Assembly (NCBI GenBank): GCA_963744145.1
Contig: CAVUSO010000001.1
Coordinates: 6,944,001 to 7,008,000, forward strand
DNA length: 64,000 nt
Source of the DNA: an uncultured cyanobacterium
Lineage (GTDB): Bacteria; Cyanobacteriota; Cyanobacteriia; Cyanobacteriales; CAWUOF01
Direction of reading: 5' to 3'
The first letter of the stretch is position 1; the number at the start of each line of letters is the position of its first letter. The notes beneath the pieces were generated by a model. It worked only from the letters and a program-made list of their open reading frames with translations. It did no database searches and was not told the DNA's origin. This document shows positions 15,556-55,200 of the stretch, piece after piece. The position numbers were made by a program, and so were the translations under genes.

Positions 15556-18500
15556 ATGAAGAGTATAAATATTTATTTAAGTATTATTCCTATAATTGTA
15601 ACAGTTACTAATAACAGTATTATTATAGCCCAGACTATCATACCAACTGCCAATAGTACAGGTACAATAATCAAATCAGTAGGCAATCAATATAACATCC
15701 AAGGCGGTAAATTATCCGCAGATAGAACAAACTTATTCCACAGTTTTGATAAATTTGGACTGAATACAGGTCAAATTGCTAATTTTATTTCTACTCCACA
15801 AATTCGTAACATTTTAGGAAGAGTAACGGGAGGAGAAGCCTCTATTATTAATGGTCTAATTAAAGTAACTGGTGGAGATACTAACTTATTTTTAATGAAT
15901 CCAGCAGGAATTGTATTTGGAAATAATGCGAGTTTGAATGTTACTGCATCATTTACTGCCACAACTTCTACAGGAATTGGATTCAATAATAATCAATGGT
16001 TTAATGCTGTTGGTAATAATAATTATAGTAATTTAATGGGAAATCCATTCCAATTTGCCTTTGATTTAACTAAGTCAGGAAATATTATCAATTCCGGAAA
16101 GTTAACCGTATCAATGGGAGAAAATTTAACATTATTAGGCGGTAACGTAATTAATACAGGGGAACTGACAGCACCTTCGGGTAATATTACTATTACTGCT
16201 GTCCCAAATCAGAATGTTGTAAAAATATCGCAACCTGGAAATATTCTAAGTCTAGAAATCGCACCACCACGAGATAATAATGGGCAAATATTACCAATAA
16301 ATTCTGTAGATTTACCAACTTTGCTAACAGGAACAGCTAAGAATGTAGATACAGGATTGAGTGTCAATACATTTGGTAATGTGCAATTAAATCAGTCAGG
16401 AATGATTTTACCAAATGAGCAAGGGGTAGCAATTACAGCAGGGAATATTTCAGTAGCAGGAATAAAGGGAAATTCAGTAGGTGGAAATGTAAATATTTTA
16501 GGTGACAAAGTAGGAGTATTTAATAGCAATATAGATGCTTCTGGTGTTGCTGGAGGGGGAACAGTAAGAATTGGTGGAGATTATCAAGGAGGGGGAATTT
16601 TACCTCATGCCACCCAAACTATTGTTGCACCCGATGCTAGTATTACTGCTAATGCAACAGGAATAGGAAATGGCGGCAAAGTAATAGCTTGGTCTGATAA
16701 TTTAACTCAATATTATGGCAATATAACTGCCCGTGGTGGTGTGAATGGTGGCGATGGCGGATTAGTAGAAACTTCAGGAAAAGACTTACTGATTTTTACA
16801 GGTGGGGTAGATGCGGGTGCAACATTAGGAAAACCAGGAACTTTACTCCTTGATCCCAAAAATATTACTATTACGGCTAGTTCACCCCTAACTACTATTT
16901 TTAACCCCAATACATCAGGTAGCTATTTTGGCTATTCAGTAGCCACAGATGGAAGCAACCTACTGGTTGGAGCATATCAGAACACATCGGGGGGAGTCTC
17001 ACAAGCAGGACAAGCCTTTTTGTTTAATACCAGTGGGTCGCTGTTGCAAACTTTCAATAACCCCAATCCTGTAACATCTGGCTGGTTCGGCAATTCAGTA
17101 GCTATATCAGGAAGCAACCTACTGATTGGGGCACCAAATAATACATCGGGGGGAGTCTCACAAGCAGGACAAGCCTTTTTGTTTAATACCAGTGGGGGGC
17201 TGTTACAAACTTTCGATAATCCCAATCCTGTAACACCTGGCAACTTCGGCTGGTCAGTAGCTATATCAGGAAGCAACCTACTAATTGGGGCAAATGGTAA
17301 CACATTGGGGGGAGTCTCACAAGTAGGACAAGCCTTTTTGTATAATACCAGTGGGGGGCTGTTGCAAACTTTCAATAACCCTAATCCTGTAACAGGTGGC
17401 AGCTTTGGCAGTGGAGTAGCTATATCAGGAAGCAACCTACTAATTGGGGCAGGAGGTAACACATCAGGGGGCGTCACATTTGCAGGACAAGCATTTTTGT
17501 TTAACACCAGTGGGGGGCTGTTGCAAACTTTCAATAACCCCAATCCTGTATTATTTGGATTATTCGGCAATTCATTAGCTATATCAGGAAGCAACCTACT
17601 AATTGGGGCAGGAGGTAACACATCGGGAGGAATCCAATTTGGAGGACAAGCCTTTTTGTTTAATACCAGTGGGATGTTACTGCAAACTTTCGATAACCCC
17701 AATCCAGGACCAACTGGCTTCTTCGGCTTGTCTGCAACTGCTATATCAGGAAGCAACCTACTGATTGGAGCAGCACTTAACACATCGGGGGGAGTTTCAG
17801 CAGCAGGACAAGCCTTTTTGTTTAATACCAGTGGGGGGCTGTTACAAACTTTCGATAATCCCAATCCTGTAGTAGGTGGCGAATTCGGCTTTTCTGCAGC
17901 TATATCAGGAAGCAACCTACTGGTTGGGGCACTAAATAATACATCGGGAGGACAAGCATTTTTTGGTAGTCCAACCTATCCAGGAGTATTATCTTTTAGT
18001 GATAATCCTAGTGCTTCAGTTAATGTTAATCCTACTGATATTACTAATGTTACCAATACAGGTACTAATGTGGTACTCCAGGCACATAATGATATTACGG
18101 TTGCCCAATCAGTTATCACCTCTGCTGGGGGAAATGGTGGTGCACTTACACTGCAAGCAGGACGCAGTATTTTAGTTAATGCCAATATCACTACCGATAA
18201 TGGAAATTTAACTCTAGTAGCGAATGAAACTGCCGCTAATGGAGTGCTAAGTCAATATCGAGATCCCGGTTTTGCTAATATTACCGTTGCACCTGGAGTC
18301 ATACTTAATTCTGGTACAGGTGATACGACAATTCGCATTAATACTGGTGTGGCTACAGGTAGTGGTGGTAATATTAGTTTGCAAAATATTATTGCTAACA
18401 ATCTGCTCGTCGAGAACTTAGGAGCTAGTAACAGTAACATTATTTTAAATACTCCCTTGACTTTGACCGGAAATATTACTTTAAATGCGAATGGAGATGT

Positions 18501-21454
18501 AATTACTCAATCGCTGACAACTCCGAAGAATAGCATTAGTATTACGAGCAATTTAGGTCAAATTGATACAACTAACGGCCCGCTTGATACTAGCTCAACT
18601 GGTGCGGGGGGAGATGTAACTTTAACAGCAAATCATCTCGGCATTATGACAGGTAATATTAATAGTAATTCTACCGGAAGTGGTAAAGGAGGAAATATCA
18701 CTATTACCAGTGGGGATGCGATCGATACCACTCTAGGAACTTTGAATTCTAGTTCAATGACAGGTCAAGGTGGAGATATTACCTTGAATGCGAATAGCAA
18801 TATAAAAATCGCTAATCTCAATACAAATAGCAATCTTAGTAGCGGAGCCGGAGGAAATATTACTCTCACTAGTAATGGCGGCTTAATTACTAATGTAGCT
18901 GGGACGATTAATGCAACTGCAAATTCAGGTAATGGCGGAAATATATCCCTAATGAGTACCAGCGATATTATCATCAATAATAATATCAATAGCAATTCTA
19001 ATGGGACGGGGAAAGGAGGAGATATTTCTTTAAATAGCACTCAGGGTGCGGTGCAGATTAATTCTCTCAATTCAACTTCAGCTTTTGGAAATGGTGGCAA
19101 TTTAACGATTAATGCGGCTCAGGATATTAAAGGATTGCTGCTCTTTGCTGATGCGACTAAAGGTCAGGGAGGAAATATTAGTTTCACTAGCACTAATGGA
19201 GCAATTAACATTAGTTCTCTCAGTGCTAATTCTCATAATTCTCAAGGTGGAACCTTATTTCTCCAAGCGAATGGCAATATCACCACGGGAGATTTAAGTG
19301 CTAAAGGGATTACGGGCATTAGTCAAGGTGGTCAGATTTCTATTATTAGTAAAAATACCGCGATCGCTGTAGGCAATATTACCACAACTGGTACAACAAG
19401 TGGGGGAAATATATCGTTACAAGCGAGTACCCAAATTACTACTAAACAAATTGATTCTAGTAGCATTAATGGAGCAGGTGGTAATCTCCTGATTAACTCC
19501 ACGGGAGATGTACAAGTGAGTAATATTAATACTTCTGGTCAGACAACGGGAGGTAATGTAGATATTACCGCAGATACATATTTGCGAGTAAATATACCCC
19601 TAACTATAGCTAATTGTGGCACAGTGAGTATTTGCACGATCGATAATAGTCAAGGAGGGAATATATTTCTCAGACATGGTGGTGATGGGGTGGTTCCATT
19701 TATCGTGGGAGATGCAACGCTCAATGGTACAGCAAGTGCAATATATAAAGGAAATGGGACAGAACAAAAGATTACGAGCGGTTCCTTCTTAGGAACTCAA
19801 GTGCAAGATAACGGGACACTGGGAATTATTACTAAGACCCCTGCTATATCCACCCCAACACCTGCTCCAACATCAACATCGACATCAACATCAACCTTTG
19901 CAACATTTGTACCAACACCAATACCAACACCAATACTAACACCAATACCAACCTCTGCTCTCACATTAACACCAACACCAACACCAACACCAACATTAAC
20001 ACCAACACTAACACCAACATTAACACCAACACTAACACCAACATCAACATCTGTACCAATAGAGGAGCATCAGAATAATTTAAATATCAATCCTGTGGAT
20101 TTAACTAAATTACCAGATCACCTAGATTCTTCCTCATTGTTCCAAGATGATACTTCTCAAAATTTGACCATTGATAAATCAATGAGTCAAGAATATACGA
20201 AGTATTTTGAGTCTAGCTGATATGGCAGAATTAAATACTAATAAAATCCGAGAGTCTCTGACTAATATTGAAAGACATACTGGGATTAGGCCCGCAATTA
20301 TTTATGTATTTTTTGCGCCTAGCACAATTACTCCTGTCCCTATCAATCATGATCTAAAAATTAATGAAAATACCTTAAAAGAACGAAATTTAGGGTTGTT
20401 AAGAGCGGGAATACCGGAAACCCAAGATCATTTAGAATTAATTTTAGTCGCAGCAGGTTCTCACCCAATTCGCAAGTCCTTAAATGTGACTAGAACTGAA
20501 GTTCTCGCGACTGCTAAAAAATTTCAGGATGCCATAGCTGACCAAAAAATCACGCGAGAATATGTAGTGCCAGCTCAACAAATGTATCAATGGTTAGTCG
20601 CTCCTTTAGCCAGGAATTTACAAGAATTGAATATTCAAAATTTGGTCTATATCATGGATCAGAAACTGCGGACTCTACCTTTAGCAGCGATGCAAGATGG
20701 TAAAGGTTTTCTGATTGAACACTATAGTGTGGGATTAATGCCAAGTTTTGCCCTGACTGACCCCAGTTATCAGGATATTCACCAGGCTCAATTATTGGCA
20801 ATGGGTAGCACTAATTTCTCGGAAGTCTTCCATCTCGGTACTTTACCATCAGTCAAAGCGGAAGTAAATTTGGCGCATCAAATTTGGGGAGGTAAATCTT
20901 TTCTGAATGACGAATTTACCCTGGAAAACTTAAAATCTCAACGGGAACATCATCCCTTTAGAATTGTCCATTTAGCTACCCATGCTGACATTGATCCAGG
21001 TACAGCAGACGACTCTTATCTTTATTTTACGAAGGAAAGATTATCTCTGCCTAATTTGCGTTCAATTAAGTGGAATAATCCCCCAGTGGAACTATTAGTT
21101 TTAAGTGCTTGTCAGACCGCAGTAGGAGATGAAGATGCAGAATTAGGTTTTGCGGGATTAGCAGTCCAATCTGGGGTGAAATCAGCCTTAGCTTCCTTAT
21201 GGCATATTTCCGATGAAGGTACTCTGGGATTAATGACGGAGTTTTACGAGCAACTGAAAACAGCACCAATAAAAGCCGAAGCTTTACGTCGCGCTCAGTT
21301 AGCAATGATGCGAGATAAAGTGCGCTTAGAAGCAGGAAAGTTAGTCACCAGTCAGCAATCTTTTCCCTTACCTCCTGAGTTAGTTGAGTTGCATCACCAA
21401 TTCAGTCATCCTTATTATTGGAGTGGGTTTACCATTATTGGTAATCCTTGGTAA
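15556..21454 (+). CDS. Array copy A: TPS/FHA N-terminal domain + 7 FG-GAP-like blades + beta-helix + Pro/Thr linker + CHAT protease; +1 frameshift at ~20210
   Basis: NLFHSF, NPAGIVFG and GTLLLDPKNITI in ORF 15556..20220; HLATH, LSACQTA, ASLW and HPYYWSGF in ORF 20207..21454. The sequence reads TTTGAGTCTAGCT where paralogues have TTTGGGCTAGCT. Confidence 0.88.
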
Positions 21455-21505
21455 ATTCACCGACTCGATCGATCTTGGTCTTTGGACCATCCCCAATGGT
21501 AACCT

Positions 21506-24500
21506 ATGAAACATTTCCTCCAGATTATTAACGGGTGTTTAACAATTTTCCCTGTAGGGATGATATGTGCTAATATTTGTCCTGGGTTAACACAATCCAT
21601 TATTCCTACTCGCAACGCTACGGGGACCTTAGTTACACCTGTAGGTAATAAATATAATATTAATGGCGGTACTCTTTCGGGCGATCGCACCAATTTATTC
21701 CACAGTTTTGATAAATTTGGACTTTCCACAGGTGAAACCGCCAATTTTATCTCTAGTCCAGGAATTCGCAATATTTTAGGGAGAATTAGCGGGGGAAATC
21801 CTTCCTTAATTAACGGATTAATTCAAGTAACGGGAGGGAATTCTAACTTATTTTTAATCAATCCTGCGGGCATTGTCTTTGGCTCTAATGCGAGTTTAAA
21901 TGTGCCCGCATCTTTTACCGCAACCACAGCGACAGGAATTGGATTTAGTAATAATCAATGGTTCAATGCGATCGGCAATAATAACTATAACAACTTAATC
22001 GGAACACCATCGCAATTTACCTTTGATTTCGCCAAATCAGGAAATATTATCAACGCGGGAAACTTAACCGTACCAGTCGGAGCAAATTTAACCTTACTGG
22101 GTGGTAATGTAATTAATACTGGACAATTGACTGCTCCTGCGGGAAATATTACTATTAATGCTGTGCCAAATCAGAATGTAGTAAAAATCTCGCAACCCGG
22201 ACATATATTAAGTTTAGAAATTGCACCTCCACGAGATTCTACTGGGCAAATATTGCCGATCGCACCTGCCGATTTACCTACTTTACTAACAGGAACAGCA
22301 AAGAATATAGATACAGGGTTGAGTGTTAATGCCAGTGGTAATGTGCAATTAAATCAGTCGGGCATAATTTTACCAAATAAGCAAGGTTTAGCAATTACAA
22401 CAGGGAATATTTCGGTAGCAGGAATAAGTGGAAATTCAGTAGGGGGAAATGTAAATGTTTTAGGAGATAAATTAGGAGTATTTAATAGCAATATCGATGC
22501 TTCTGGCGCTACGGGAGGAGGAATAGTAAGAATAGGTGGAGATTATCAAGGAGGAGGAACTTTACCCCATGCTAGTCAAACAATAATTGCGACCGACTCT
22601 AGTATTAATGCTAATGCCACAGAGACAGGAAATGGTGGAAAAGTAATAGTCTGGTCAGATAGTTTTACCAGTTATTATGGCAATATCACTGCTCGTGGAG
22701 GAGTCAAAGGTGGGGATGGTGGTCTAGTTGAAACTTCAGGCAAAAACTTACTAATTTTTACTGGAGGAGTAGATGCGGGAGCAAATTTAGGTAAACCAGG
22801 AACATTATTGCTTGATCCGAAAAATATCACCATTACTAATGTTAACTCACCCTTAGTTACACTTACCAACCCCAACCCTGTAGCAGGTAGCTTCGGTCTT
22901 TCAGTTGCAGTAACGAATGACAACAAGCTCTTGGTTGGTGCTTACCTTAACACATCGGGGGGATACACAGCAGCAGGACAAGCTTTTTTGTTTAATAGCA
23001 GCGGTGGACTGATCACAACTTTAGACAATCCCAATCCTATAGCAAATGGACAGTTCGGGTCTCAAGTTGCCGTAACAAGTAACAACAACCTGTTGATCGG
23101 CGCTCCTTCCAACCAACAATCGGGGGGGAGTATCATAGCAGGACAAGCTTTTTTGTTTAATAGTAGCGGTAATCTGCTCCGAACTTTAGACAATCCTGTT
23201 CCTTCAGGAGGATTCTTCGGATGGTCAGTAGCTGGAGTGGGCAGTAACTTGTTGATTGGAGCACCTTACAACCAACAATCGGGGGGGAGTACCATAGCAG
23301 GACAAGCCTTTTTGTTTAATAGTAGTGGTAATCTGCTACAAACTTTAGATAATCCCAATCCTGTAACAAATGGAGGATTCGGATGGTCAGTTGCCGCAGC
23401 AGGTAATAACCTCTTGATCGGCGCTCCTTACAACACATCGGGGGGATTACCATCTGCAGGACAAGCGTTTTTGTTTAACAGTAGTGGTAATCTGCTGCAA
23501 ACTTTAGACAACCCTAACCCTGTCTATGCTGGAGAGTTCGGATATTCAGTTGCCGGAGTAGGTAACAACCTGTTGATCGGAGCGTGGAACAATACATCGG
23601 GAGGATTACCATCTGCAGGACAAGCGTTTTTGTTTAACAGTAGTGGGACACTGTTGAAAACTTTAGATAATCCTAACCCTTATACGCCTGCAATGCTTGG
23701 AAATTTCGGAAATTCAGTTGCCGGACTAGGTAGTAATCTGTTGATCGGGGCCTATCAAAACACATCGGGGGGATTTACCGGAGCAGGGCAAGCTTTTTTG
23801 TTTAATAGCAATAATAGTAGTATTAATAATGGGCTACTACAAACATTTGATAATCCTAATCCTGCAACAAATGGCAACTTTGGTGCTTTCGTTGCCGCCG
23901 CAGGTAATAACCCGCTGGTCGGAGCTATTGGTAATGGAGTCTCAGGAGCAGGACAAGCGTTTTTGGTTAGTCCGACCTATCCAGGAGCATTATCTTTTAA
24001 TGACAATCCCAGTGCTTCAGTTAATGTTGATCCGATTAATATTACTAATGTTACTAATACGGGCACTAATGTCGTACTTCAAGTACATAATGATCTGACT
24101 GTTGCCCAACCAGTGATTACCTCTGCGGGAGGACATGGTGGAGCGATTACCCTGCAAGCAGGACGCAGTATTTTAGTTAATGCCAACATCACTACCGATA
24201 ATGGAAATTTAACTCTAGTTGCGAATGAAACTGCGGCTAATGGAATTCTAAGTCAATATCGAGATCCCGGTTTTGCTAATATTACCGTTGCACCTGGAGT
24301 CATACTTAATTCTGGTACAGGTGATACGGCAATTCGCATTAATACTGGTGCGGCGATCGGCAGTGGTGGTAATATTAGTTTGCGAAATATTATTGCTAAC
24401 AATCTCCTAGTCGAGAATTTAGGAGCTAGCAACAGCAACATTATTTTAAATACTCCCCCGACTTTGACCGGAAATATTACTTTAACTGCGAATGGAAATG

Positions 24501-27431
24501 TAACTACTCCGTCGCTGACAACTCCGGGTAATAGCATTAGTATTACGAGCAATTTAGGTCAAATTGATACAACTGGGGGCACTATTGATAGTAGCTCAAC
24601 TGGTGCGGGGGGAGATGTAACTTTAACAACAACTAATCTCGCCATTATTACAGGTAATGTTAATAGTAATTCTACTGGGAGTGGTAAAGGAGGAAATATC
24701 ACTATTACCAGTGGGGATGCGATTGATACCACTCTAGGAACTTTGAATTCTAGTTCAATGACAGGTCAAGGTGGAGATATTACCTTGAATGCGAATAGCA
24801 ATATAAAAATCGCTAATCTCAATACAAATAGCAATCTTAGTAGTGGAGCTGGGGGAAATATTACCCTGAATAGTAATGGCGGTTTAATTACTAATATAAC
24901 TGGGACGATTAATGCAACTGCAAATTCAGGTCATGGGGGAAATATATCCCTAATGAGTACCAGCGATATTATCATCAATAAGAATATCAATAGCAATTCT
25001 AATGGGACTGGGAACGGAGGAGATATTTCTTTAACTAGCACGAGTGGTGCGGTGCAGATTAATTCTCTCAATTCAACTTCAAAGTTTGGGAATGGTGGAA
25101 ATTTAACGATTAATGCTGCTAATAATATTAAAGGATTGCTGCTCTTTGCTGATGCGACTAAAGGTCAGGGAGGAAATATTAGTCTCACTAGCACTACCGG
25201 AGCAATTAATATTAGTTCGCTGAGTGCTAATTCTAATAATGCTCAAGGTGGAACCTTATTTCTCCAAGCGAATAGCAATATCACTACAGGAGATTTAAGT
25301 GCTAAAGGGATTACGGGGATAAGTCAAGGTGGTCAGACTTCTATTATTAGTAAAAAAGCCGCGATCGCGATTGGTAATATTACCACAAATGGTCCAGCAA
25401 GTGGAGGAAATATCTCCTTACAAGCTAGCACCCAAATTACGACTAAACAAATTAATTCTAGTAGCATTAATGGAGCAGGTGGTAATGTGCTAATTGACCC
25501 TACGGGAGATGTGCAAGTGAGTAATATTAATACTGCTGGTCAGACAACAGGAGGAAATGTGGATATTACCGCAGGTACATATTTGCGAGTAAATGTACCT
25601 CTAACTACAGCTAATTGCGGTACAGTGAGTATTTGCACAATTGGTAATAGTCAAGGAGGGAATATATTTCTCAGACATGGGGGTGATGGAGTAGTTCCAT
25701 TTATCGTGGGAGATGCAACGCTCAATGGTACAGCTAGTGCAATATATAAGGGAAATAGTTCAGAACAAAAGATTAATAGTGGTTCCTTCTTGATGACTCA
25801 ATTGCAAGATAACGGGACACTGGGAATTATTACTAAGACCACTGCTATACCAACACCAACACCTGCACCAACATCAACATCAACATCAACATCAACCCTT
25901 GCAACATTTGTACCAACACCAGTACCAACATCTACTCTAATACCAATACCAACACCAACACCAATACCAACACCTGCACCAACACCAATACCAACAACAA
26001 CACTAATACCAACACCTACTCCAACACCTGTACCAATAGAGGAGCATCAGAATAATTTAAACATTAATCCTGTAGATTTAACTAAATTACAAGATCATCT
26101 AGATTCTTCCCTATTGTTCCAAAATGATACTTCTCAAAATTTGGCAATTGATAAATCAATGAGTCAAGAATATACTCAATATTTTGGGCTAGCTGATGTG
26201 GCAGAATTGAGTGTTAGTAAAATCCGAGAGTCTCTGACTAATATTGAAAAACATACTGGGATTAAGCCCGCAGTTATTTATGTATTTTTTGCGCCTAGTA
26301 CGATTACTCCTGTCCCTATTAATAGCGAAGTAAAAATTACTGAAAATCCCTTAAAAGAACAAAATTTAGGTTTGTTAAGAGCGGCAATACCGGCAGCCCA
26401 AGATCATTTAGAATTAATTTTAGTCACAGGAAGTTCTCACCCAATTCGCAAGTCCTTAAATGTGACTAGAGAGGAAGTTCTTGCGACTGCTCAAAAATTT
26501 CAGGATACAGTAGCTGACCAAAAAATGACGCGAGAATATCTGGTGCCATCGCAAAGAATGTATCAATGGTTAGTCGCTCCTTTAGAACAGAATTTACAAG
26601 CATTGAATATTCAAAATTTGGTCTATATCATGGATCAGAAACTCCGCACTCTTCCTTTAGCAGCAATGCGGGATGAGAAAAGTTTTCTGATTGAACGCTA
26701 CAGTGTGGGATTAATGCCAAGTTTTGCCCTGACTGACCCCAGTTATCAGGATATTCATAGTTCTCAATTATTAGCAATGGGTAGCACTAATTTCTCGGAT
26801 GTCTTCCATCTCAGTGCTTTACCATCCGTGAAAGCGGAAGTAAATTTGGCGCATCAAATTTGGGGAGGTAAATCTTTTCTGAATGATCAATTTACCCTGG
26901 AAACCTTAAAATCTCAACGGGAACATCATCCCTTTACAATTGTCCATTTAGCTACCCATGCTGACGTTAATCCGGGTACAGCCGATGACTCTTATCTTTA
27001 TTTTACGAAGGAAAGATTACCTCTGCCTAATTTACGTTCAATTAAGTGGAATAATCCCCCAGTAGAACTATTAGTTTTAAGTGCTTGTCAGACCGCAGTA
27101 GGAAATGATAATGTGGAGTTAGGTTTTGCCGGATTAGCAGTCCAATCTGGGGTGAAATCAGCTTTAGCTTCCTTATGGCATATTTCTGATGAAGGTACTC
27201 TAGGATTAATGACGGAGTTTTACGAGCAATTAAAAACAGCACCAATTAAAGCCGAAGCTTTACGTCGCGCTCAGTTAGCTATGATGTCACCATGAAGTGC
27301 GTTTACAAGCAGGAAAGTTAGTCACCAGTAAGCAATCTTTTCCCTTACCTCCTGAGTTAGTTAATTTGCATCACCAATTCAGTCATCCTTATTATTGGAG
27401 TGGGTTTACCATTATTGGTAATCCTTGGTAA
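21506..27431 (+). CDS. Array copy B: TPS + 7-blade propeller + beta-helix + Pro/Thr + CHAT; +1 frameshift at ~27287 cuts off the last ~47 aa
   Basis: 1929 aa ORF ends at 27295; the paralogous tail EVRLQAGKLV...HPYYWSGFTIIGNPW continues in another frame to 27431. Confidence 0.9.
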
Positions 27432-27482
27432 ATTCACCGACTCCATCGACCTTGGTCTTTGAACTCTCCCAAATGGTAACCT

Positions 27483-27716
27483 ATGAAACATTTACTCCAG
27501 ATTATTAACGGGTGTTTAACAATTTTCCCGCTAGGGATGATATGTACTAATATTTGTCCTGGGTTAGCACAATCTATTATTCCTACTCGCAACGCTACGG
27601 GCACCTTAGTTACACCTGTAGGTAATAAATATAATATTAATGGTGGTACTCTTGCGGGCGATCGCACCAACCTATTCCACAGTTTTGATCAATTTGGACT
27701 TTCCGCAGGTGAAACC
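27483..27716 (+). pseudogene. 5' remnant of an array copy (signal peptide and start of TPS domain)
   Basis: MKHLLQIINGCL...NLFHSFDQFGLSAGET is near-identical to copies B and C; homology stops at 27716. Confidence 0.9.
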
Positions 27717-27744
27717 TTCTGCTGCCAATCTGCAAAAAATTACG

Positions 27745-27891
27745 CTAAGGATTATGAATCCATTCGTCATGAATTAAGTTAGTCCATTTAGCTCTAAAGA
27801 GATCGGCGATCGCTAATTGAATGAGAATATCTCTAAGATAGTTAGAATAAAGGACACAGGCATCGTATATTACTGTAAATTTGCTAGTCAT
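27745..27891 (-). pseudogene. Truncated PIN-domain (VapC/PIN_3-like) toxin, 48 aa
   Basis: Manual translation MTSKFTVIYDACVLYSNYLRDILIQLAIADLFRAKWTNLIHDEWIHNP*. The start overlaps the stop of the upstream HTH gene (ATGACTAG). Confidence 0.8.
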
Positions 27892-28339: not shown

Positions 28340-28709
28340 TGGGCAACCTCAGATAGTTTTGTTTTTAGATTGCTGGAAATTGTTTGAATTTTGCTCAAAG
28401 TCTAGCATATTAAAACGCAATAAACGAAATAGTGACAGTGCAAGCGAGGGAAGCGATCGCACTTGGAGCAGATCAAGCCGTTGGTGCTTGGGGTGCTGAG
28501 TAAAGCAGCGCGGTATAATTGACTGTTGCCAAATTTTAGATCTATAAAGTCCGTGCCATTGAATTACCATTATTTTATGGTTATTTTCGGTGGCCCAAGT
28601 ACCTGCCTGCCGTCTTAGCCTTAGCAGATCAGATTTACAGCACATTAGACTGGTGGACTACCCCGCTACGAAGTGCGCCGGGAATACGATCGCAACCAAA
28701 ACTAATTGC

Positions 28710-29080: not shown

Positions 29081-29084
29081 AGCC

Positions 29085-40155: not shown

Positions 40156-43100
40156 ATGATGATGAAACATTTGATCAAGATTATTAACGGGTATTTAATA
40201 ATTTTCCCTGTAGCAATACTATTTACTAGTATTTGTCCTGGATTAGCACAATCTATTATCCCGACTCGCAACGCTACAGGTACATTAGTGACACCAGTAG
40301 GTAATAAATACAATATTAATGGCGGTACTCTTTCGGGCGATCGCACCAATTTATTCCATAGTTTTGACCAATTCGGACTTTCCGCAGGTGAAACCGTCAA
40401 TTTTATTTCTAATCCCCAAATTCGGAATATTTTAGGTAGAATTAGCGGAGGAAATCCTTCCTTAATTAACGGATTAATTCAAGTTACGGGAGGGAATTCT
40501 AACTTATTTTTAATCAACCCTGTGGGCTTAGTATTTGGCCCAAATGCCAGGTTAAATGTGCCCGCATCTTTTACCGCAACGACAGCAACAGCGATCGGAT
40601 TTAGCAATAATCAATGGTTCAATGCGATCGGCAATAATAACTATAACAACTTAATTGGAACACCATCACAATTTGCCTTTGATTTAGTTAAATCGGGAAA
40701 TATTATCAACGCGGGAAACTTAAGAGTACCAACGGGAGAAAATTTAACCTTACTAGGTGGTAATGTAATTAATACCGGGCAACTGACCGCACCTGGGGGA
40801 AATATTACGATTAATGCTGTGCCCAATCAGAATATAGTAAAAATATCTCAACCTGGAAATATCCTCAGTTTAGAAATCACACCACCCAGAGATCCGAGCG
40901 GACAAATCTTGCCGATCGCTCCCGTCGATTTACCAACTTTGCTAACAGGAACAGCCAATAATATAGGCACAGGTTTGAGTGTCAATCCTCCTGGTAATGT
41001 CCAATTAAATCAGTCAGGAATTATTTTACCAAATCAGCAAGGTTTAACAATTACATCAGGTCATATTTCGGTAGCAGGAATACCCGGAAATACCGTGGGT
41101 GGAAATATCAATATTTTGGGTGACAAAATCGGATTATTTAATAGCAATATAGATGCTTCAGGTGCGGTGGGAGGGGGAACAGTAAAAATCGGTGGTGATC
41201 ATCAAGGAGGGGGAACCTTACCTCATGCTACCCAAACTATTATTGCTCCTAATGCAACCATCAATGCTAATGCCACAGTAACAGGAAATGGTGGCAAAGT
41301 AATAGTTTGGTCAGATAATTTCACCAGTTATTATGGCAATATCACCGCTCGTGGTGGCGTCAAGGTCGGCGATGGTGGTCTAGTTGAAGTTTCAGGCAAA
41401 GACTTACTAATTTTTACTGGAGGAGTAGATGCAGGAGTAAATCTAGGTAAACCAGGAACATTACTCCTTGATCCTAAAAATATCACTATTACTAATGCTA
41501 GTTCACCCCTAGTAACATTCTTAAACCCTAACCCTGTCAGTACAGGCAGTTTCGGTTTTGCAGTAGCTTCAGAGGGCAATAATCTGCTCATCGGAGCGCA
41601 ATTTAATACATCAGGGGGAGTCGCAAATGCGGGGCAAGCCTATTTATTTAACACCAGTGGGGGACTGCTGCAAACTTTCAATAATCCCAATCCTGTATCA
41701 GGTGGCTTTTTTGGCAATTCAGTAGCTATATCTGGTAACAACCTGTTGATTGGAGCACCGAATAACACCTTTGGGGGATTTACAACTGTAGGACAAGCAT
41801 TTTTGTTTAACACCAGTGGGGGATTGCTGCAAACTTTCAATAACCCTAATCCTATAGCAAATGGGCTTTTCAGTCAATCAGTAGCTATATCTGGTAGCAA
41901 TCTGTTGATCGGGGCACCGGGAAACAAATTAGGGGCGGTGACAGGAGCAGGGCAAGCCTACTTGTTTAATACTAATGGGGGGCTGCTGCAAACTTTCAAT
42001 AATCCTCATCCAGTCACACCTGGCAGTTTTGGCTATACAGTAGCTATATCCGACAGCAATCTGTTGATTGGGGCAATTGGCAATACATCGGGGGGAGTCC
42101 CATTGGCAGGTCAAGCCTTTTTGTTTAACACCAGTGGGGGGCTATTGCAAACTTTCGATAACCCCAATCCAATCACACCTGGCAGTTTTGGTTATTCAGT
42201 AGCTATATCAGGAAGCAACCTGTTGATCGGAGCGCAATATAACAACTCCTCGGGAGGAGTCTCAGGAGCAGGGCAAGCCTTTTTATTTAACACCAGTGGG
42301 AGGCTATTGCAAACATTCGATAACCCCTATCCCATACCAAGCGGCAACTTTGGTTTTTCAGTAGCTATATCTGGCAACAACCTGTTGATTGGGGCAATAA
42401 ATAATAATAATATACCGCTAGGAGTCCCAGGAGCAGGACAAGCATTTTTATTTAACAGTAGCGGCAATTTACTGCAAACATTAGAGAGTCCAACACCGGA
42501 ATCATCGGGTCAGTTTGGCTATTCAGTTACTCCTGTAGGTAATAATTTCTTGATCGGAGCTAACTATGAAACATCGGGAGGACAACTGGGTGCAGGAAAT
42601 ACCTATTTAATGGCTGCTGCTTACCCTACTGCTCTGTCTTTTAGTGATAATCCCAGTCAATCAATAAATGTTAATCCTGCTGATATTACTCGTGTCACCA
42701 ATACAGGCACTAATGTCGTACTCCAAGCACACAATGATATTACTGTTGCCCAACCAGTTATTACCTCTGCGGGGGGAAATGGTGGTGCATTTACTCTCCA
42801 AGCAGGACGCAGTATTTTAGTTAATGCTAACATCACTACGGATAATGGAAATTTAACTCTAGTTGCTAACGAAACTGCTGCTAATGGAGTGCAAAGTCAA
42901 TATCGAGATTCTGGTTTTGCTAATATTACTGTTGCACCTGGAGTAACACTTAATTCTGGTACAGGTGATACCACGATTCGGATTAATACGGGTACGGCTA
43001 CAGGTAGTAGTGGTAATATTAGTTTACAAAATATCACTGCAAAAAATTTGCTCGTTGAGAATTTAGGGTTTGGTAATAGCAGCATTATCTTAAATAATAC

Positions 43101-46203: not shown

Positions 46204-49200
46204 ATGAAAAAAAGTATTGTAAAGATTATTAACGGACACTTGATAATTGGCACCATATGTATATGTATTGGTAATAGTGATCCTGGATTAGCACAATCTA
46301 TTATTCCCACTAGCAACGCGACAAACACATTAGTGACCCCAGTAGGGAATAAATATAATATTAACGGTGGGATGCTGTCGGGCGATCGCACCAACCTATT
46401 CCATAGCTTTGATAAATTCGGACTTTCCGCAGGAGAAACAGTCAATTTTATCTCTAATCCCCAAATTCGCAATATTTTAGGGAGAGTTACGGGGGGAAAT
46501 CCATCCCTAATTAACGGACTAATCCAAGTAACAGGAGGGAATTCTAACTTATTCTTAATCAATCCTGCGGGAATAGTATTTGGCACTAATGCGAGTTTAA
46601 ATGTGCCAGCATCTTTTACCGCAACTACAGCGACAGGAATGGGATTTAGTAATAATCAATGGTTCAATGCTTTTGGCAATAATAATTATAGTAATTTAAT
46701 TGGAACGCCATCTCAATTTGCCTTTGATTTAGCGAAATCGGGAAACATTATCAACGCGGGAAAATTAACCGTACCGCTCGGCTCAAATTTAACATTACTA
46801 GGTGGTAATGTAATTAATACTGGACAATTGACTGCACCTTCTGGAAATATTACGATTACGGCTGTCCCTAATCAGAATGTAGTCAAAATCTCGCAACCTG
46901 GAAATATTCTAAGTTTAGAAATTACACCACCAAGAGATACCACTGGTCAAATCTTGCCGATCGCTCCCGTCGATTTACCGACATTGCTAACGGGAACAGC
47001 CAATAATATAGAGACAGGTTTGAGTGTAAATGCAAGTGGTAATGTGCAAGTAAATCAGTCCGGCATAATTTTGCCTAATGTTTCAGGGTTAGCGATCGCA
47101 ACAGGGAATATTTCTGTAGCAGGAGTAACCGGAAATGCGGTAGGTGGAAATGTCAATGTTTTAGGAGATAAAGTAGGGTTATTTAATAGCAATATCGATG
47201 CTTCAGGTGTTGGGGGAGGGGGAACAGTAAAAATCGGTGGAGATTATCAAGGAGGGGGAACTTTACCCCATGCTACTCAAACGATTATTGCACCTGATGC
47301 AAGTATTAACGCTAATGCAACAGAAACAGGAAATGGCGGGAAAGTAATAGTTTGGTCAGATAATTTTACTAGAGATTATGGCAATATTATTGCTCGTGGT
47401 GGCGTCAGTGGTGGCGATGGTGGTCTGGTCGAAGTTTCTGGTAAAGATTTGCTAATCTTTACCGGAATGGTAGATGCGGGAGCAACGTTAGGTCAACCAG
47501 GAACCTTACTCCTTGATCCCAAAAATATCACCATTACTAACTCACCCCTAGCAACTATGCTTTTAAACCCCTATCCTTTGCCATTTGGCGTGTACAGCTA
47601 TGATTTAGCCTCAGATGGCAATAACGTATTAGTCGGGGCAATCTATAACACATCAGGAGGGGTCTTAGCAGCAGGTCAGGCATTTTTATTTAACACTAGC
47701 GGATCGCTATTGCAAACTTTCAATAACCCCAATCCTACATCAAATGGTCAATTCGGTATTGGAGTTGCGATATCTGGCAATAACGTGTTAATCGGGGCAA
47801 GTTGTAACACATCGGGAGGGTTCTCAGGCGCGGGCCAAGCCTTTTTGTTTAACACCAGCGGATCGCTACTGCGAACTTTCAATAACCCTAATCCTGTAAT
47901 AAATGGCAGTTTCGGCACTTCAGTTGCGATATCGGGCAGCAACCTGTTGATTGGAGCAAGTGGTAACACATCACTAGGGTTCTCAGGCGCGGGCCAAGCT
48001 TTTTTGTTTAACACCAGTGGATCGCTACTGCAAACTTTCAATAACCCCAATCCTGTAATAAATGGCAATTTCGGCATTTCAGTGGCGATGTCTGGTAGCA
48101 ACCTGTTGATCGGGGCAAATGGTAACACCTCACTAGGGGTCACAGCAGCAGGACAAGCCTTTTTATTTAATACTAGCGGATCGCTATTGCAAACGTTCAA
48201 TAACCCCAATCCTGCATATGGCAGCTTCGGCACTTCAGTGGCGATGTCTGGTAGTAACCTGTTGATCGGAGCAGATACTAACACATCAGGAGGAGTCCCA
48301 CAAGCAGGACAAGCATTTTTGTTTAACACTAGCGGATCACTACTGCAAACTTTCGATAACCCCAATCCTGTATCAAGTGGCAGCTTTGGTCAGTCAGTAG
48401 CTATATCCGGTAGCAACCTATTAATCGGAGCTCCGGATAACACATCAGGAGGTTACTCACAAGCAGGACAAGCCTTTTTGTTTAACACTAATAATAATCT
48501 ACTGCAAACCTTGAATAGTCCATTGCCGCAATCAAGTGGCAATTTTGGGTGGGCAGTTGCTTTGGTAGGTAGTAACATATTCGTAGGAAGCTTAAGTGAA
48601 ACATCACAAGGGGTATTAGGAGCAGGAAACAGCTATTTCATGACTGCTGCCTATTCTGGAGTTCTATCTTTTAGTGATAATCCCAGTTCTTCGGTTAATG
48701 TTGATCCGATTAATATTACTAATGTTACCAATACGGGCACTCATGTGGTACTCCAGGCACACAATGATATTACTGTTGCCCAACCAGTGATTACCTCTGC
48801 GGGGGGAAATGGTGGTGCACTTGCTCTCCAAGCAGGACGTAGTATTCTAGTTAATGCCAACATCACCACGGATAACGGCAATTTAACCCTAAGTGCGAAC
48901 GAAACTGCGGCTAATGGAGTTCTAAGTCAATATCGAGATCCTGGTTTTGCTAATATTACCGTTGCACCTGGAGTCACACTTAATTCTGGTACAGGTGATA
49001 CAACAATAAGGATTGCTACGGGGGCAACTCCAGGAAGTGGTGGTAATATTAGTTTGCAAAATATCACTGCGAAAAATTTGCTGGTAGAGAACTTAGGATT
49101 TGGCAACAGCAACATTATCTTAAATACTCCCCTTACTCCCACCGGAAATGTTACCCTAACTGCCAATGGGGATGTGACTACTCAGGGGATTACAACTCCG

Positions 49201-52126
49201 GGTAATAGCATTAGTATTACGAGCAATTTAGGTCAAATTGATACGACTGGAGGCACTATTGATACTAGCTCAACTGGTGCGGGTGGAGATATAACTTTAA
49301 CAGCAACTAATCTCGGTATTAGGACAGGTAATATTAATAGTAATTCGACCGGGAGTGGTCAAGGAGGAAATATCACTCTTACCAGTGGGGATGCGATCGA
49401 TACTACTCTAGAAACTTTGAATTCTAGTTCAGGGACAGGAAAAGGTGGAGATATTACCTTTAATGCGAATAGCAATATACAAATCGCTAATCTCAATACG
49501 ACTAGCAATGGGAGTGGTGCAGGGGGAAATATTACCCTGAATACTACGGGAGGCTTAATTACGAATCCGACTGGAACGATTACTTCAACTTCAACTTCAG
49601 GTCAGGGAGGGAATATTTTCCTAATAAGTGCTAGCGATATTATTCTTAACAAGAATATTAATAGCAGTTCTAATGGTACTGGTAAAGGAGGAGATATTTC
49701 TTTAACTAGCACTCAGGGGGCGGTGCAGATTAATTCTCTTAATTCAACTTCAGCATTTGGAAATGGTGGAAATTTAACAATTAATGCTGCTCAGGATATT
49801 AAAGGATTATTGCTCTTTGCTGACGCGACTAAAGGTCAGGGAGGAAATATTAGTCTCACTAGCAATACTGGAGCAATTAATATAAGTTTACTCAGTGCTA
49901 ATTCTAATAATTCTCAAGGTGGAACATTGTTTCTAAATGCGAATGGGAATATTACCACGGGAGATATAAGTGCTAAAGGGATTACGGGAATTAGTCAAGG
50001 TGGTCGGACTTCTATTACCAGTAAAAACGCTGCGATCGCTGTAGGTAATATCACTACAACTGGTGCAGCAAGTGGGGGAAATATATCCTTACAAGCTAGC
50101 ACCCAAATTACGGCTAAACAAATTGATTCTAGTAGCATGAATGGAGCGGGTGGTAATGTACGAATTGACCCCATAGGAGATGTGCAAGTGAGTAATATTA
50201 ATACTGCTGGTCAGACAACTGGAGGTAATGTAGATCTTACAGCAGGTACATATTTACGAGTAAATATCCCTGTCACTATAGCTAATTGTGGCACAGTGAG
50301 TATTTGCACAATTGGTAATAGTCAAGGAGGAAATATATTTCTCAGACATGGGGGTGATGGGGTAGTTCCATTTATCGTGGGAGATGCAACAATCAATGGT
50401 ACAGCTAGTGCGATCGATAAAGGAAATGGGACAGAAGAAAATATAACGAGCGGTTCCTTCTTAGGAACTCAATTGCAAGATAACGGGACACTGGGAATTA
50501 TTACTAAGACCCCTGTTATACCCACCCCAACACCTGCTCCCACATCAACATCAACATCAACCTTGGTAACATTTGTCCCAATATCAACACCTATATCAAC
50601 ACCTATATCAACACCTATTCCAACACCTATTCCAACTTCTGCTCCCATATCTGCACTAACATCTACACCAATACCAATACCAACCCTAATACCATTACCC
50701 ACCCTAACACCTACTCCAACACCTGTACCAATAGAGGAGCATCAGAATAATTTAAATATTAATCCTGTGGATTTAACTAAATTACCAGATCACCTAGATT
50801 CTTCCCCATTGTCTCAAGATGATACTTCTCAAAATTTGGCAATTGATAAATCCATGAGTCAAGAATATACGAAGTATTTTGCGCTAGCTGATGTAGCAGA
50901 ATTAAATACTAATAAAATCCGAGAGTCTCTGACCAATATAGAAAAACATACTGGGATTAAACCCGCAGTTATTTATGTATTTTTTGCAGCCTAGCACAAT
51001 TACTCCTGTCCCGATTAATCACGATATCAAAATTACTGAAAATACCTTGAAAGAACAAAATTTAGGGTTGTTAAGAGCGGGAATAGCGGAAACCCAAGAT
51101 CATTTAGAATTAATTTTAGTCCCAGCGGGTTCTCACCCCATACGCAAGTCCTTAAATGTCACTAGAGCCGAAGTTCTTGCGACTGCTAAAAAATTTCAGG
51201 ATACCGTAGCAGATCAAAAAAATACGCGAGCATATCTAGTCCCTGCTCACCAAATGTATCAATGGTTAGTTGCTCCTTTGGAACAGAATTTACAACAATT
51301 AAATATTCAAAACTTAGTCTATATCATGGATCAGAAGCTGCGGACTGTACCTTTAGCAGCAATGCAAGATGAGCAAGGTTTTATAATTGAACGCTACAGT
51401 GTGGGATTAATGCCAAGTTTTGCCCTGACTGACACGAGTTACCAGAATATTCACAATGCTCAATTATTGGCAATGGGTAGCACTAATTTCTCAGATATTT
51501 TTCATCTGGGTACTTTACCATCAGTCAAAGAAGAAGTAGATTTGGCACATCAAATTTGGGGAGGTAAATCTTTTCTGAATGACGAATTTACCCTAGAAAA
51601 CTTAAAATCCCAACGAGAACATAATCCCTTTAGAATCGTTCATTTAGCTACCCATGCGGACATTAATCCCGGTACAGAAGCCGACTCTTATATTTATTTT
51701 ACTAAAGAAAGATTATCCCTACCTAATTTACGTTCAATTAAGTGGAATAATCCCCCAGTAGAACTATTAGTTTTAAGTGCTTGTCAGACCGCAGTAGGAA
51801 ATGACAATGTGGAGTTAGGTTTTGCGGGATTAGCAGTTCAATCTGGAGTGAAATCAGCACTAGCTTCCTTATGGTATATTTCTGATGAAGGTACTCTGGG
51901 ATTAATGACAGAGTTTTACCAGCAATTAAAAACAGCACCAATTAAAGCTGAAGCTTTACGTCGCGCTCAGTTAGCAATGATGCGTGGTGAAGTGCGCTTA
52001 GAATCTGGGAAGTTAGTCACCAGTAAGCAATCGTTTCCCTTACCTCCTGCGATCGCTAATTTACATCACCAATTAAGACATCCTTATTATTGGAGTGGAT
52101 TTACAATTATTGGTAATCCTTGGTAA
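46204..52126 (+). CDS. Array copy F: TPS + 7-blade propeller + beta-helix + Pro/Thr + CHAT; +1 frameshift at ~50988
   Basis: ORFs 46204..50994 and 50975..52126; the sequence reads TTTGCAGCCTAGC where paralogues have TTTGCGCCTAGC or TTTGCACCTAGC. Confidence 0.88.
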
Positions 52127-52229: not shown

Positions 52230-55200
52230 ATGAAAAAAAGTATTGTAAAGATTATTAACGGACCATTGATAATTGGCACCATATGTGTATGTATTGGTAA
52301 TAGTGATCCTGGATTAGCACAATCCATTATTCCTACTAGCAACGCGACAAACACCTTAGTGACCCCAGTAGGGAATAAATATAATATTAACGGTGGGATG
52401 CTGTCGGGCGATCGCACCAACCTATTCCACAGTTTTGATAAATTTGGACTTTCCACAGGTGAAACAGCCAATTTTATCTCTAATCCCCAAATTCGGAATA
52501 TTTTAGGAAGAGTTACGGGAGGAAATCCCTCCTTAATTAACGGACTAATCCAAGTAACAGGAGGGAATTCTAACTTATTTTTAATCAATCCTGCGGGAAT
52601 TGTATTTGGCACTAATGCAAGTTTAAATATCCCCGCAGCTTTTACCGCAACCACAGCGACAGGAATTGGATTTAATAATAATCAATGGTTCAATGCGATC
52701 GGCAATAATAACTATAACAATTTCATCGGAACACCATCGCAATTTGCCTTTGATTTAGCGAAATCGGGAAACATTATCAACGCGGGAAAATTAACCGTAC
52801 CGCTCGGCTCAAATTTAACCTTACTAGGTGGTAATGTAATTAATACTGGACAATTGACTGCACCTTCTGGAAATATTACGATTACGGCTGTCCCTAATCA
52901 GAATGTAGTCAAAATCTCGCAACCCGGAAATATCCTAAGTTTAGAAATCGCCCCACCACGAGATGCCACGGGGCAAATATTACCGATCAATCCCGTTGAT
53001 TTACCGACGTTGCTAACGGGAACAGCCAAGAATATAGAGACAGGTTTGAGTGTCAATCCAACGGGCAATGTGCAGTTAAATCAGGTAGGAGTTATTTTAC
53101 CTAATGAGCAGGGTTTAGCCATTACATCAGGGAATATTTCAGTAGCTGGAATAACTGGAAATGGAGTGGGGGGAAATGTCAATGTTTTAGGGGACAAAGT
53201 AGGGTTATTTAATAGTAATATAGATGCTTCTGGTGCGACGGGAGGGGGAATAGTAAGAATCGGTGGAGATTATCAAGGAGGGGGAACTTTACCCCATGCT
53301 ACCCAAACGATCATTGCACCAGATGCGAGCATCAATGCTAATGCCACAGCTACAGGAAAAGGTGGCGAAGTAATAGTTTGGTCAGATAATTTTACCAATT
53401 ATGATGGCAATATCACTGCTCGTGGTGGGAGCAAGGGTGGTAATGGCGGATTAGTAGAAACTTCGGGAAAAGACTTATTAATTTTTACGGGAGGAGTAGA
53501 TGCGGGTGCAGCATTAGGAAAGCCAGGAACATTACTACTTGATCCTAAAAATATCACGATTACTAATGCTAGCTCACCTCTAGTAACTATGCTAAACCCC
53601 AATCCGATCAATCCAGCTCTGTTTGGTACTTCAGTAGCTTCAGATGGTAACAACCTGCTGATCGGAGCACCAGATAACACATCGGGGGGTATTGGTCTAG
53701 CAGGGCAAGCCTTTTTATTTAACACCAGTGGGTCGCTGCTGCAAACTTTCAATAACCCCAATCCAGTACCAAGTGGCCACTTAGGTTATGCAGTTGCTAT
53801 ATCCGGTAGCAATCTTTTGATCGCAGCATCCAGAAACACATCGGGAGGAGTCACAGGAGCAGGACAAGCCTATTTGTTTAATCCTAGTGGGCAACTGCTA
53901 CATACTTTCGATAATCCCAATCCTGTAGTAAATGGTGACTTTGGCTATGGACTTACTATATCGGGCAGTAACCTTTTGATCGGGGCTTATGGAAACACAT
54001 CTGGAGGGATCACACACGCAGGACAAGCCTTTTTGTTTAACACCAGTGGAACGCTACTACAAACTTTCGATAATCCTAATCCTGTAATCAATGGCTACTT
54101 CGGCTATTCAAGTGCTATATCCGGCAGCAACTTGTTGATTGGAGCAATTGGCAACACATCGGGGGGGCTCCCATCGCAGGGCAAGCTTTTTTGTTTAATA
54201 CCAGTGGGGCATTGCTGCAAACTTTCGATAATCCTAATCCTGTAGCCAATGGCTACTTCGGCTTTTCAGTTGCTATATCGGGCAGCAATTTGTTGATTGG
54301 AGCGCCTAAAAACACGTCGGGGGGAGTCACTAATGCTGGGCAAGCCTATTTATTTAACACTGGTGGAGCGCTGCTGCAAACTTTTAATAACCCCAATCCT
54401 GTCACAGGTGGCGCAAATGGCAACTTTGGCATTTCAGGTGCTATATCCGGTAACAACCTATTGATCGGGGCGTCAGGAAATACATCGGGAGGGTTTACGC
54501 AAGCAGGGCAAGTCTTTTTGTTTAATCCTAACAATAATCTCCTGCAAACCTTTAATAGCCTAAATCCACAAACTTCTGGTAATTTTGGGGCATCAGTTAC
54601 TCCTGTAGGTAGCAATATATTAGTAGGAGCCTACGGCGAAACTTCAGGAGGAGTACCGACGGCAGGAAACAGCTATTTAATGGGTGCTGCTTATCCTGGT
54701 GTCCTGTCTTTTAATGATAATCCCAGTCAATCAATTAATGTTGATCCTATCAATATTACTAGCGTTACCAATACGGGTACTAATGTGGTACTCCAGGCAC
54801 ATAATGATCTTACTGTTGCCCAACCAGTTATTACCTCTGCGGGGGGAAATGGTGGTGCATTTACTCTCCAAGCAGGACGCAGTATTCTCGTTAATGCTAA
54901 CATCACCACGGATAACGGGAATTTAACTCTAGTTGCGAATGAAACTGCGGCTAATGGAGTGCAAAGTCCATATCGAGATCCGGGTTTTGCTAATATTACC
55001 GTTGCACCTGGAGTAATACTTAACTCTGGTACGGGTGATACCACGATTCGGATTAATACGGGTACGGCTACAGGTAGTAGTGGTAATATTAGTTTGCAAA
55101 ATATCACTGCGAAAAATTTGCTGGTAGAGAATTTAGGATTTGGCAATAGCAACATTATCTTAAATACTCCCCTGACTCCCACCGGAAATATTACCTTAAC

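Follow-up and report, generated by a model that had tools for sequence, protein, structure and literature searches.

What keeps most of a repeat unit nearly invariant while a few fixed positions differ from copy to copy? The question is raised by a 64,000-nt stretch of the genome of an uncultured cyanobacterium (contig CAVUSO010000001.1, positions 6,944,001 to 7,008,000), here called the window, in which open reading frame (ORF) listing and translation identified seven tandem + strand paralogues, g1 to g7. Each encodes, in order, a two-partner secretion (TPS) domain, an FG-GAP_2 propeller, a beta-helix shaft, a proline/threonine-rich (P/T) linker, and a C-terminal CHAT domain. The original prediction, made from the letters and their translations, held that the propeller blades carry hypervariable loop positions under diversifying selection on a nearly invariant scaffold. 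Our analyses lead us to favor, with a probability of roughly 0.62, the view that loop residues on one face of these FG-GAP_2 propellers are the specificity-determining positions of a putative recognition surface. Although the evidence of selection is clear and has been replicated, gene conversion confounds it. The genes and propellers are as follows (aa, amino acids).

15556-21454, + strand: g1, a TPS-propeller-beta-helix-P/T linker-CHAT paralogue in two frames (15556-20220 and 20207-21454), with a 1-nt frameshift near 20210
16876-17985, + strand: g1 propeller, seven blades plus closing strand
21506-27428, + strand: g2 paralogue; the ORF stops at 27295, and the final ~45 codons of its CHAT tail lie in another frame, to 27428, with the frameshift near 27286-27292
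22838-23986, + strand: g2 propeller, seven blades plus closing strand
29222-35134, + strand: g3, intact, 1970 aa, matched by Pfam TPS, FG-GAP_2, and CHAT and by TIGR01901
30551-31699, + strand: g3 propeller, seven blades plus closing strand; the domain modeled is 30500-31735
35186-40042, + strand: g4, an intact short paralogue of 1618 aa, with 322 beta-helix codons versus 613 to 614 in the others and without the P/T repeat linker
36518-37684, + strand: g4 propeller; blade 7 has 66 aa, with a 13-aa internal duplication (37451-37648)
40156-46071, + strand: g5, intact, 1971 aa
41494-42630, + strand: g5 propeller, seven blades plus closing strand
46204-52126, + strand: g6 paralogue in two frames (46204-50994 and 50975-52126), with a 1-nt frameshift near 50990
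47539-48660, + strand: g6 propeller, seven blades plus closing strand
52230-58177, + strand: g7 paralogue in two frames (52230-54245 and 54191-58177), with a frameshift in a seven-G run (54163-54169) in the 2-3 loop of blade 4
53565-54700, + strand: g7 propeller, seven blades plus closing strand, broken by the g7 frameshift

Only g3, g4, and g5 are intact; g1, g2, g6, and g7 carry a single frameshift each, and a homopolymer is present at the frameshift of g7 only. Pfam searches of three paralogues matched TPS at the N terminus in all three (PF05860, E value of 1.7e-42), FG-GAP_2 (PF14312) at 78.8, 137.7, and 130.4 bits against a gathering cutoff of 23, and CHAT (PF12770) in all three as a full-length match (E values of 2.4e-62 to 4.8e-64). 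In g3, the NCBIfam model TIGR01901, for the filamentous-hemagglutinin N-terminal domain, scored 81.6 bits against a cutoff of 29.1. The paralogue translations have a hydrophobic N terminus, and all seven contain HLATHA and LSAC(Q/R)TA, which would supply the putative catalytic His/Cys dyad of CHAT. The ~610 residues that separate the propeller from CHAT consist of G/N/S/T-rich repeats without a family match and are read here as a probable beta-helix-like shaft.

To delimit blade units, each gene was cut between the motifs DPKNITIT and SF[SN]DNPS. This gave seven units in each of the seven genes, matching the 49 blades predicted over 16915-54690; they run from 16876 (g1 blade 1) to 54664 (g7 blade 7), and the closing strand extends to ~54700. 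Tandem Repeats Finder reported a 159-bp period in all seven genes. The expected 53-aa length was exact in 28 of the 42 full units, the rest having 49 to 56 aa apart from the one 66-aa unit with its 13-aa duplication, while the first unit of each gene (n = 7) lacks the first strand and has 44 to 47 aa. Column entropy was calculated from a MAFFT alignment over the 53 columns occupied in at least 40 of the 49 blades. It was below 0.5 bit in 20 columns and below 1 bit in 32; 12 columns reached at least 2 bits (11, 28, 42, 44, 47, 52, 54, 63, 65, 73, 74, and 75), and six of these at least 3 bits (28, 44, 47, 63, 65, and 75). Per-column entropy thus bore out the claim of a near-invariant scaffold with concentrated variation. 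The loops VTSGW, VTPGN, VLFGL, YTPAMLGN, and IITGGGA and the residue pairs listed after GA in the original prediction were all present, and the residue after FG was of exactly the ten types given (Y, N, I, W, T, S, F, L, A, and Q). Both F and G of the FG motif occur in 47 of 49 blades and both G and A of the GA motif in 46, with P after GA in 14. The scaffold is invariant as protein only: because mean blade-to-blade nucleotide identity is 64 to 69%, its conservation is due to selection and not to recent copying alone.

Substitution rates were estimated with our own GY94-F3x4 codon likelihood code. Domain values of dN/dS, the ratio of nonsynonymous to synonymous divergence (omega), and of dS were obtained by the Nei-Gojobori method over the 21 paralogue pairs.

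Propeller: omega 0.24, dS 1.10
TPS: omega 0.15, dS 0.55
Shaft (beta-helix): omega 0.22, dS 0.40
CHAT: omega 0.20, dS 0.45

The whole-domain value for the propeller conceals two column classes. On a fixed IQ-TREE topology of the 49 blades, comparison of models M2a and M1a gave a likelihood ratio test (LRT) statistic of 146.8, with 14.6% of columns (p2 of 0.146) in a class with an omega2 of 3.8. Seven columns (28, 42, 44, 47, 63, 65, and 75) belonged to this class with a posterior of >0.97, and columns 11, 19, 27, 48, 52, 68, 73, and 74 fell in the class with an omega of 1. In a site-wise test on a 24 x 24 grid of synonymous (alpha) and nonsynonymous (beta) rates, with the synonymous rate left free, the seven columns pooled had an alpha of 1.3 and a beta of 3.9, and scaffold omega was 0.14.

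A second test used 15 sister-blade pairs from all ten paralogues (the seven in the array and three elsewhere on the contig) and so did not rely on a deep tree built from recombining repeats; a pair involving g9 blade 2 was excluded as misaligned. The LRT statistic was 54.8 (P value of 1e-12) with an omega2 of 4.15, and the selected class comprised the same seven columns together with 73 and 74. S, N, G, T, and Y account for most residues at these nine columns, and <4% are D, E, K, R, or H. Columns picked on the 10 pairs outside g2/g3 gave an alpha of 0.9 and a beta of 7.25 (P value of 0.021) when evaluated on the five g2/g3 pairs. A model-free count agreed: at codon positions 1 and 2 of the nine columns, 131 of 260 sites differed (0.50), versus 68 of 315 four-fold degenerate scaffold sites (0.216), and codon 1+2 divergence was above four-fold divergence in 15 of 15 pairs. 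As controls, the M1a/M2a comparison was run on other domains of the seven paralogues; LRT statistics were 0 for TPS (405 codons), 0.47 for the shaft (322 codons), and 0 for CHAT (296 codons). Omega at the selected columns is ~3 to 4, while TPS, beta-helix, and CHAT have no class with an omega of >1. The proposal of diversifying selection at the variable loop sites is supported by these model comparisons, by the sister pairs, by the controls, and by the location of the columns on the fold.

The fold was predicted by an AlphaFold2 run on the g3 propeller, with the other propellers of the window as the alignment. The model had a predicted local distance difference test score (pLDDT) of 85.6, a predicted TM score (pTM) of 0.86, and 28 strands in seven groups of four. 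In a Foldseek search of the PDB, the best match was integrin alpha (4wk4_A; E value of 9.7e-17, query TM score [TMq] of 0.72); the top matches had TMq values of 0.67 to 0.72, and all 46 matches listed were integrin entries. The repeats are predicted by this model to form a closed seven-bladed integrin-type propeller. In order along the unit, a DSSP overlay assigns GQAFLF to strand 3, LLQTF to strand 4, FGxSVAx to strand 1, and LLIGA to strand 2. Strands 3 and 1 are each followed by a short turn (NTSGx and SGSN, respectively), and strands 4 and 2 by the long 4-1 loop (NPNPxxxGx) and the long 2-3 loop (xxNTSGGxxxA). The ring closes with an N-terminal PLVTL strand against a C-terminal GQAFL(V/I)S strand.

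Columns 28, 42, and 44 map to the 4-1 loop, column 47 is the first residue after FG, and columns 63, 65, and 73 to 75 map to the 2-3 loop. All seven columns selected on the 49-blade tree and all nine from the sister pairs are thus in the 4-1 loop, in the 2-3 loop, or at the start of strand 1, and are not scattered over the structure. Since the blade is antiparallel and four-stranded, with loops that alternate between faces, the two long loops lie on one face and the two short turns on the other; by this blade topology, the positively selected columns would all occupy one face. Columns 11 and 52, weaker variable columns of the neutral class, are at turns of the opposite face. In integrins, the 4-1 and 2-3 loops reportedly form the ligand face.

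Homologues in other genomes were examined at the nine positions, which were chosen in advance. Six of 30 related genomes matched, with a best identity of 47%, and propellers were taken from Spirulina subsalsa, from three Coleofasciculus paralogue loci (two usable), from two related cyanobacterial metagenome-assembled genomes (MAGs), and from others. After alignment of these blades to the blade profile, the pair G014_b1/J066_b6, which joins two different genomes, was excluded from both the sister and the orthologue groups. Eleven within-protein sister-blade pairs from five other genomes had an omega of 4.35 at the nine positions (P value of 3e-6 versus 1), and the five Spirulina and Coleofasciculus sister pairs had an omega of 8.4. 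In five orthologous blade pairs from the two MAGs, which differ at 38 of 64 four-fold sites, omega at the nine positions was 0.15, below 1 (P value of 1e-7) and no different from the scaffold value of 0.13. The orthologue value means that the nine positions are constrained and not neutral. To diverge between blades and paralogues yet be held between orthologues is the behavior that specificity determinants would show. We also compared the consensus scaffolds of three homologues (L016, from Spirulina subsalsa; L017, from Coleofasciculus; and L019). Each homologue has its own within-protein consensus, such as GQAYLFNSSGxLLQTFDNPNP in Spirulina subsalsa and GSAYLFDTVTGNLLQTFNNPTPEDND in L019, and the positions that vary are shared; homogenized scaffolds with diverse loops therefore recur across lineages.

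In the explanation that we favor, ~40 of the 53 blade positions would build the fold under strong purifying selection (omega of ~0.14), and 7 to 9 positions on the two long loops of one face would form the putative recognition surface. After duplication or homogenization of a blade or gene, the loop positions would be replaced faster than silent change accumulates and, once set, would be held. Loop diversity would arise by point substitution and could also be carried between neighboring blades by short gene-conversion tracts. Synonymous divergence along the genes bears on the larger arrangement. In 50-codon windows, pooled dS was 0.42 to 0.72 in TPS, 0.89 to 1.59 in the propeller, 0.22 to 0.51 in the shaft, and 0.31 to 0.64 in CHAT; it rose from 0.67 to 1.13 where TPS meets the propeller and dropped from 0.98 to 0.41 where the propeller meets the shaft. 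Blades 1 and 7, each orthologous from gene to gene, likewise had values of 1.0 to 1.2. Given such sharp steps, the flanks appear to have been homogenized among paralogues by gene conversion over 15634-58174, while the propeller was spared and retains old divergence. With similar TPS, shaft, and CHAT regions (dS of 0.2 to 0.7) and a diverged propeller cassette (dS of ~1.0 to 1.2), the array would join similar delivery and effector modules to recognition heads that differ. The proteins would be exported through a TpsB (ShlB-type) partner, the propeller face would bind a target, and CHAT may act as a protease, on a target or on its own protein. Two matches to TpsB (ShlB/FhaC-type; PF03865) above cutoff are present elsewhere in the genome, and TpsB adjoins the homologous gene in one of four other genomes (G033, contig C50).

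Several points weigh against this explanation. Segmental exchange between blades is visible, and conversion can inflate site-model tests. The window analyses chose their column classes from the data that they tested, and site-wise beta exceeded alpha at a P value of <0.05 in just 3 of the 7 columns (28, 42, and 47). Reverse cross-validation, with columns picked on g2/g3 and evaluated on the other pairs, was weak: omega was 1.18, with no significant excess over its own alpha, and beta was 1.48 when set against the global silent rate (P value of 0.017). Placement on one face is an argument from strand topology and not from measured distances, and the orthologue comparison comprises just five blade pairs of distant homologues. 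Frameshifts in four of the seven genes mean that part of the array may be nonfunctional. No TpsB match was found among the 15 flanking ORFs scanned in the window. Finally, the same columns are variable not only in 119 blades of 17 TPS-CHAT homologues from other cyanobacteria (Spearman coefficient of 0.82) but also in 183 blades of 10 other FG-GAP_2 proteins (Spearman coefficient of 0.73), so that the pattern of positions is generic to FG-GAP_2 repeats, a family trait. What is distinctive in this array is the uniformity of the scaffold and the speed of change at the variable columns.

The alternative that survives best is concerted evolution without positive selection, which we judge unlikely but regard as a serious contender. 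Conversion would reset the scaffold codons and leave loop codons that are older or imported, either because purifying selection on a blade's own loop residues rejects overwriting tracts or because tracts import the loop codons of other blades; the omega of >1 would then be an artifact. Inner blades do group by gene in g1, g4, and g6, the usual sign of concerted evolution, while blades 1 and 7 group by position across genes. Exchanges of loop size are clear: in the 2-3 loop segment, g2 blade 2 matches g2 blade 3 at 90% identity but its g3 counterpart at 64%, and identity between g3 blades 4 and 5 in this segment reaches 97%. Donor and acceptor have the same scaffold, so the codons altered by such tracts are mainly the variable ones, which inflates omega. 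The conservation of loop positions between orthologues is also compatible with this alternative, as is a synonymous rate slightly raised at the selected columns (alpha of 1.3 versus 0.98; third positions, 0.30 versus 0.216). However, four-fold divergence within 2 codons of selected columns is not raised (0.236, versus 0.196 further away; P value of 0.41), and the excess survives removal of loop segments with a possible genomic donor: with 6, 10, and 14 of 30 segments flagged at three thresholds and removed, the remainder diverged at 0.50, 0.465, and 0.40, versus 0.216. In addition, dS between g2 and g3 is even, at ~0.25 to 0.30 across all four domains, yet 48 of 82 first and second positions differ at their loop columns versus 11 of 101 four-fold sites (five pairs summed). 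Such uniform dS fits one whole-gene event followed by loop change. We argue that gene conversion contributes to the excess replacement and is not the whole story, although it may account for a large part of the signal.

A more elaborate proposal makes the array a library of recognition heads for a contact-dependent system. Propellers with a top face maintained in diverse forms would direct interchangeable TPS, shaft, and CHAT-protease modules, and frameshifted copies might serve as silent donors whose loop codons are re-sorted into expressed genes by segmental conversion. This would be analogous to cassette variation of the pilS/vlsE type, but in a free-living filamentous cyanobacterium and with a receptor-binding propeller, not an antigen, as the varying part. 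We consider it doubtful.

Neutral drift of unconstrained surface loops on a repeat constrained by its fold, of the sort seen in any repeat protein, at an omega of ~1 and with no role in specificity, is improbable. It would account for the shared location of the most variable columns in unrelated FG-GAP_2 proteins and for the eight further columns in the class with an omega of 1. M1a, which allows an omega of at most 1, is nevertheless rejected in both data sets (LRT statistics of 146.8 and 54.8), replacement positions diverge 2.3x faster than four-fold sites, and the orthologue omega of 0.15 is significantly below 1.

Decay of a largely dead array, with the variation reflecting relaxed constraint, is very improbable. 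The frameshifts in g1, g2, g6, and g7 and the interruption of another paralogue elsewhere in the genome by an insertion are what it would predict. Scaffold omega is 0.07 to 0.25 even in pairs that include broken genes, though, and TPS, shaft, and CHAT of all seven paralogues stand at 0.15 to 0.22. Decay would not be expected to concentrate variation in nine columns on one face, and the same pattern is found in intact g3, g4, and g5 of the array and in intact g8.

Targeted hypermutation of loop codons by a diversity-generating retroelement or similar device can practically be discounted: the sharp contrast between variable and fixed codons and the frequent Asn at variable columns are suggestive, but W, Q, E, K, and M occur there and cannot be produced by adenine-directed mutagenesis of AAY codons, Pfam scans of three paralogues and 15 flanking ORFs (of at least 150 aa) found no reverse transcriptase, and the variation is among paralogous blades and not between a template and a variable repeat.

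The specificity-surface explanation sets these proteins beside several known systems. Like the integrin alpha propeller, the domain has seven four-stranded blades, FG and GA(P) motifs, units offset from blades, and closure by an N-terminal outer strand. Unlike it, the domain has no Ca2+-binding acidic hairpin, the 1-2 turn (SGSN) reading S/V-G-S/N-N without acidic residues; by Pfam it is FG-GAP_2 and not FG-GAP, and no match to the Ca2+-type integrin repeat (PF01839) was found at an E value of ≤0.01 in the three paralogues scanned. There is also no beta-subunit partner, the blades are nearly identical, and the context is that of a bacterial secreted protein. TpsA exoproteins such as FHA and CdiA share the N-terminal TPS domain and an extended, repetitive shaft of beta-helix-like character; they also share a central module that has diverged while its flanks are conserved, which resembles the CdiA receptor-binding region. 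They differ in that the recognition module here is a propeller directly after TPS and that the C terminus is a conserved CHAT domain, with no variable toxin. Transcription activator-like (TAL) effectors, with their repeat-variable diresidues, lamprey variable lymphocyte receptors, and other leucine-rich repeat receptors likewise have near-identical, concerted repeats in which a few positions on one surface carry almost all the variation, but the fold here is a closed propeller and not a solenoid.

Two further propeller proteins are comparable. Coral tachylectin-2 is described as a multibladed propeller lectin, a recognition protein with high amino acid diversity and positive selection (PMC2880987); it belongs to another propeller family and is an animal immune gene whose diversity is allelic, not paralogous. 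Bap1 and RbmC of Vibrio cholerae carry FG-GAP propellers. They are secreted bacterial matrix adhesins (PMC3161981) without TPS, CHAT, or a tandem multigene array, and they are not known to have hypervariable blade positions.

Contact-dependent inhibition of the CdiA-CT/CdiI kind was considered separately and rejected because the C-terminal CHAT domain is conserved among paralogues (mean dN of 0.09) and the intergenic gaps in the array, 51 to 132 bp, are too short for an immunity gene.

Proteins that combine TPS, FG-GAP_2, and CHAT are common and multicopy in filamentous cyanobacteria (Coleofasciculus, Spirulina, Symplocastrum, and Pleurocapsa), where "CHAT domain-containing protein" and "filamentous hemagglutinin family protein" are widespread annotations. 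Full-text searches, confined to papers outside subscription journals, found no paper treating this architecture, none joining the CHAT domain with two-partner secretion in cyanobacteria or with filamentous hemagglutinin, and, among the papers listed, none joining it with FG-GAP or hemagglutinin. If the variable face is a selected recognition surface, these proteins would be candidates for recognition between cells, between cell and matrix, or of competitors in mat- and crust-forming cyanobacteria, and the nine columns pinpoint residues to mutate or swap in order to probe specificity. The locus would also offer a clean natural case of repeat-variable residues on a closed propeller and would bring together three processes: concerted scaffold evolution, homogenized flanks, and a diverged cassette.

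The P/T linkers that precede the CHAT region contain short tandem repeats with periods of 6 to 42 nt, whose unit and copy number vary among paralogues.

19911-20049, 25849-26036, 33610-33740, 44500-44662, 50581-50731, and 56559-56776: P/T linker tandem repeats, before the CHAT region

Contigs of a soil metagenome were placed on 15556-35134. They were ~300 to 450 nt long at a depth of ~1 to 12, and 64 records fit two places, reflecting cross-placement between paralogues. One contig, at about half depth, omits the base at 20210/20212 and could represent either an intact g1 allele or a paralogue placed at 90% likeness. The placement gives no usable evidence on polymorphism or on the reality of the frameshifts.

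Three more paralogues (L013, L014, and L015) are located on the same 7.63-Mb contig, at ~2.585, 7.048, and 7.199 Mb. One is intact, its open frame of 1984 aa carrying TPS and CHAT; another has an open frame of 2023 aa; and the third is broken inside blade 2 by ~2 to 3 kb containing minus-strand ORFs of 431 and 306 aa.

The window contains other genes around the array. At 10826-13141 and 61097-63558 are a PP2C phosphatase that has a zinc ribbon at its N terminus and a BrxC/BrxD-like ATPase ORF pair, with no link to the array seen. Directly upstream of the array, 14271-15398 is predicted to encode an XDD3-family exosortase-dependent (PEP-CTERM-type) surface protein (NF041930, 135 bits). Within the array, the 1.8-kb spacer between g2 and g3 (27430-29221) contains an ORF of the excisionase family with a helix-turn-helix (27884-28339, minus strand), and the motifs of the CHAT C-terminal tail, YWSG...GNPW, occur a second time just 5′ of g3 (29132-29167). 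This looks like a remnant left by a lost paralogue or by an insertion.

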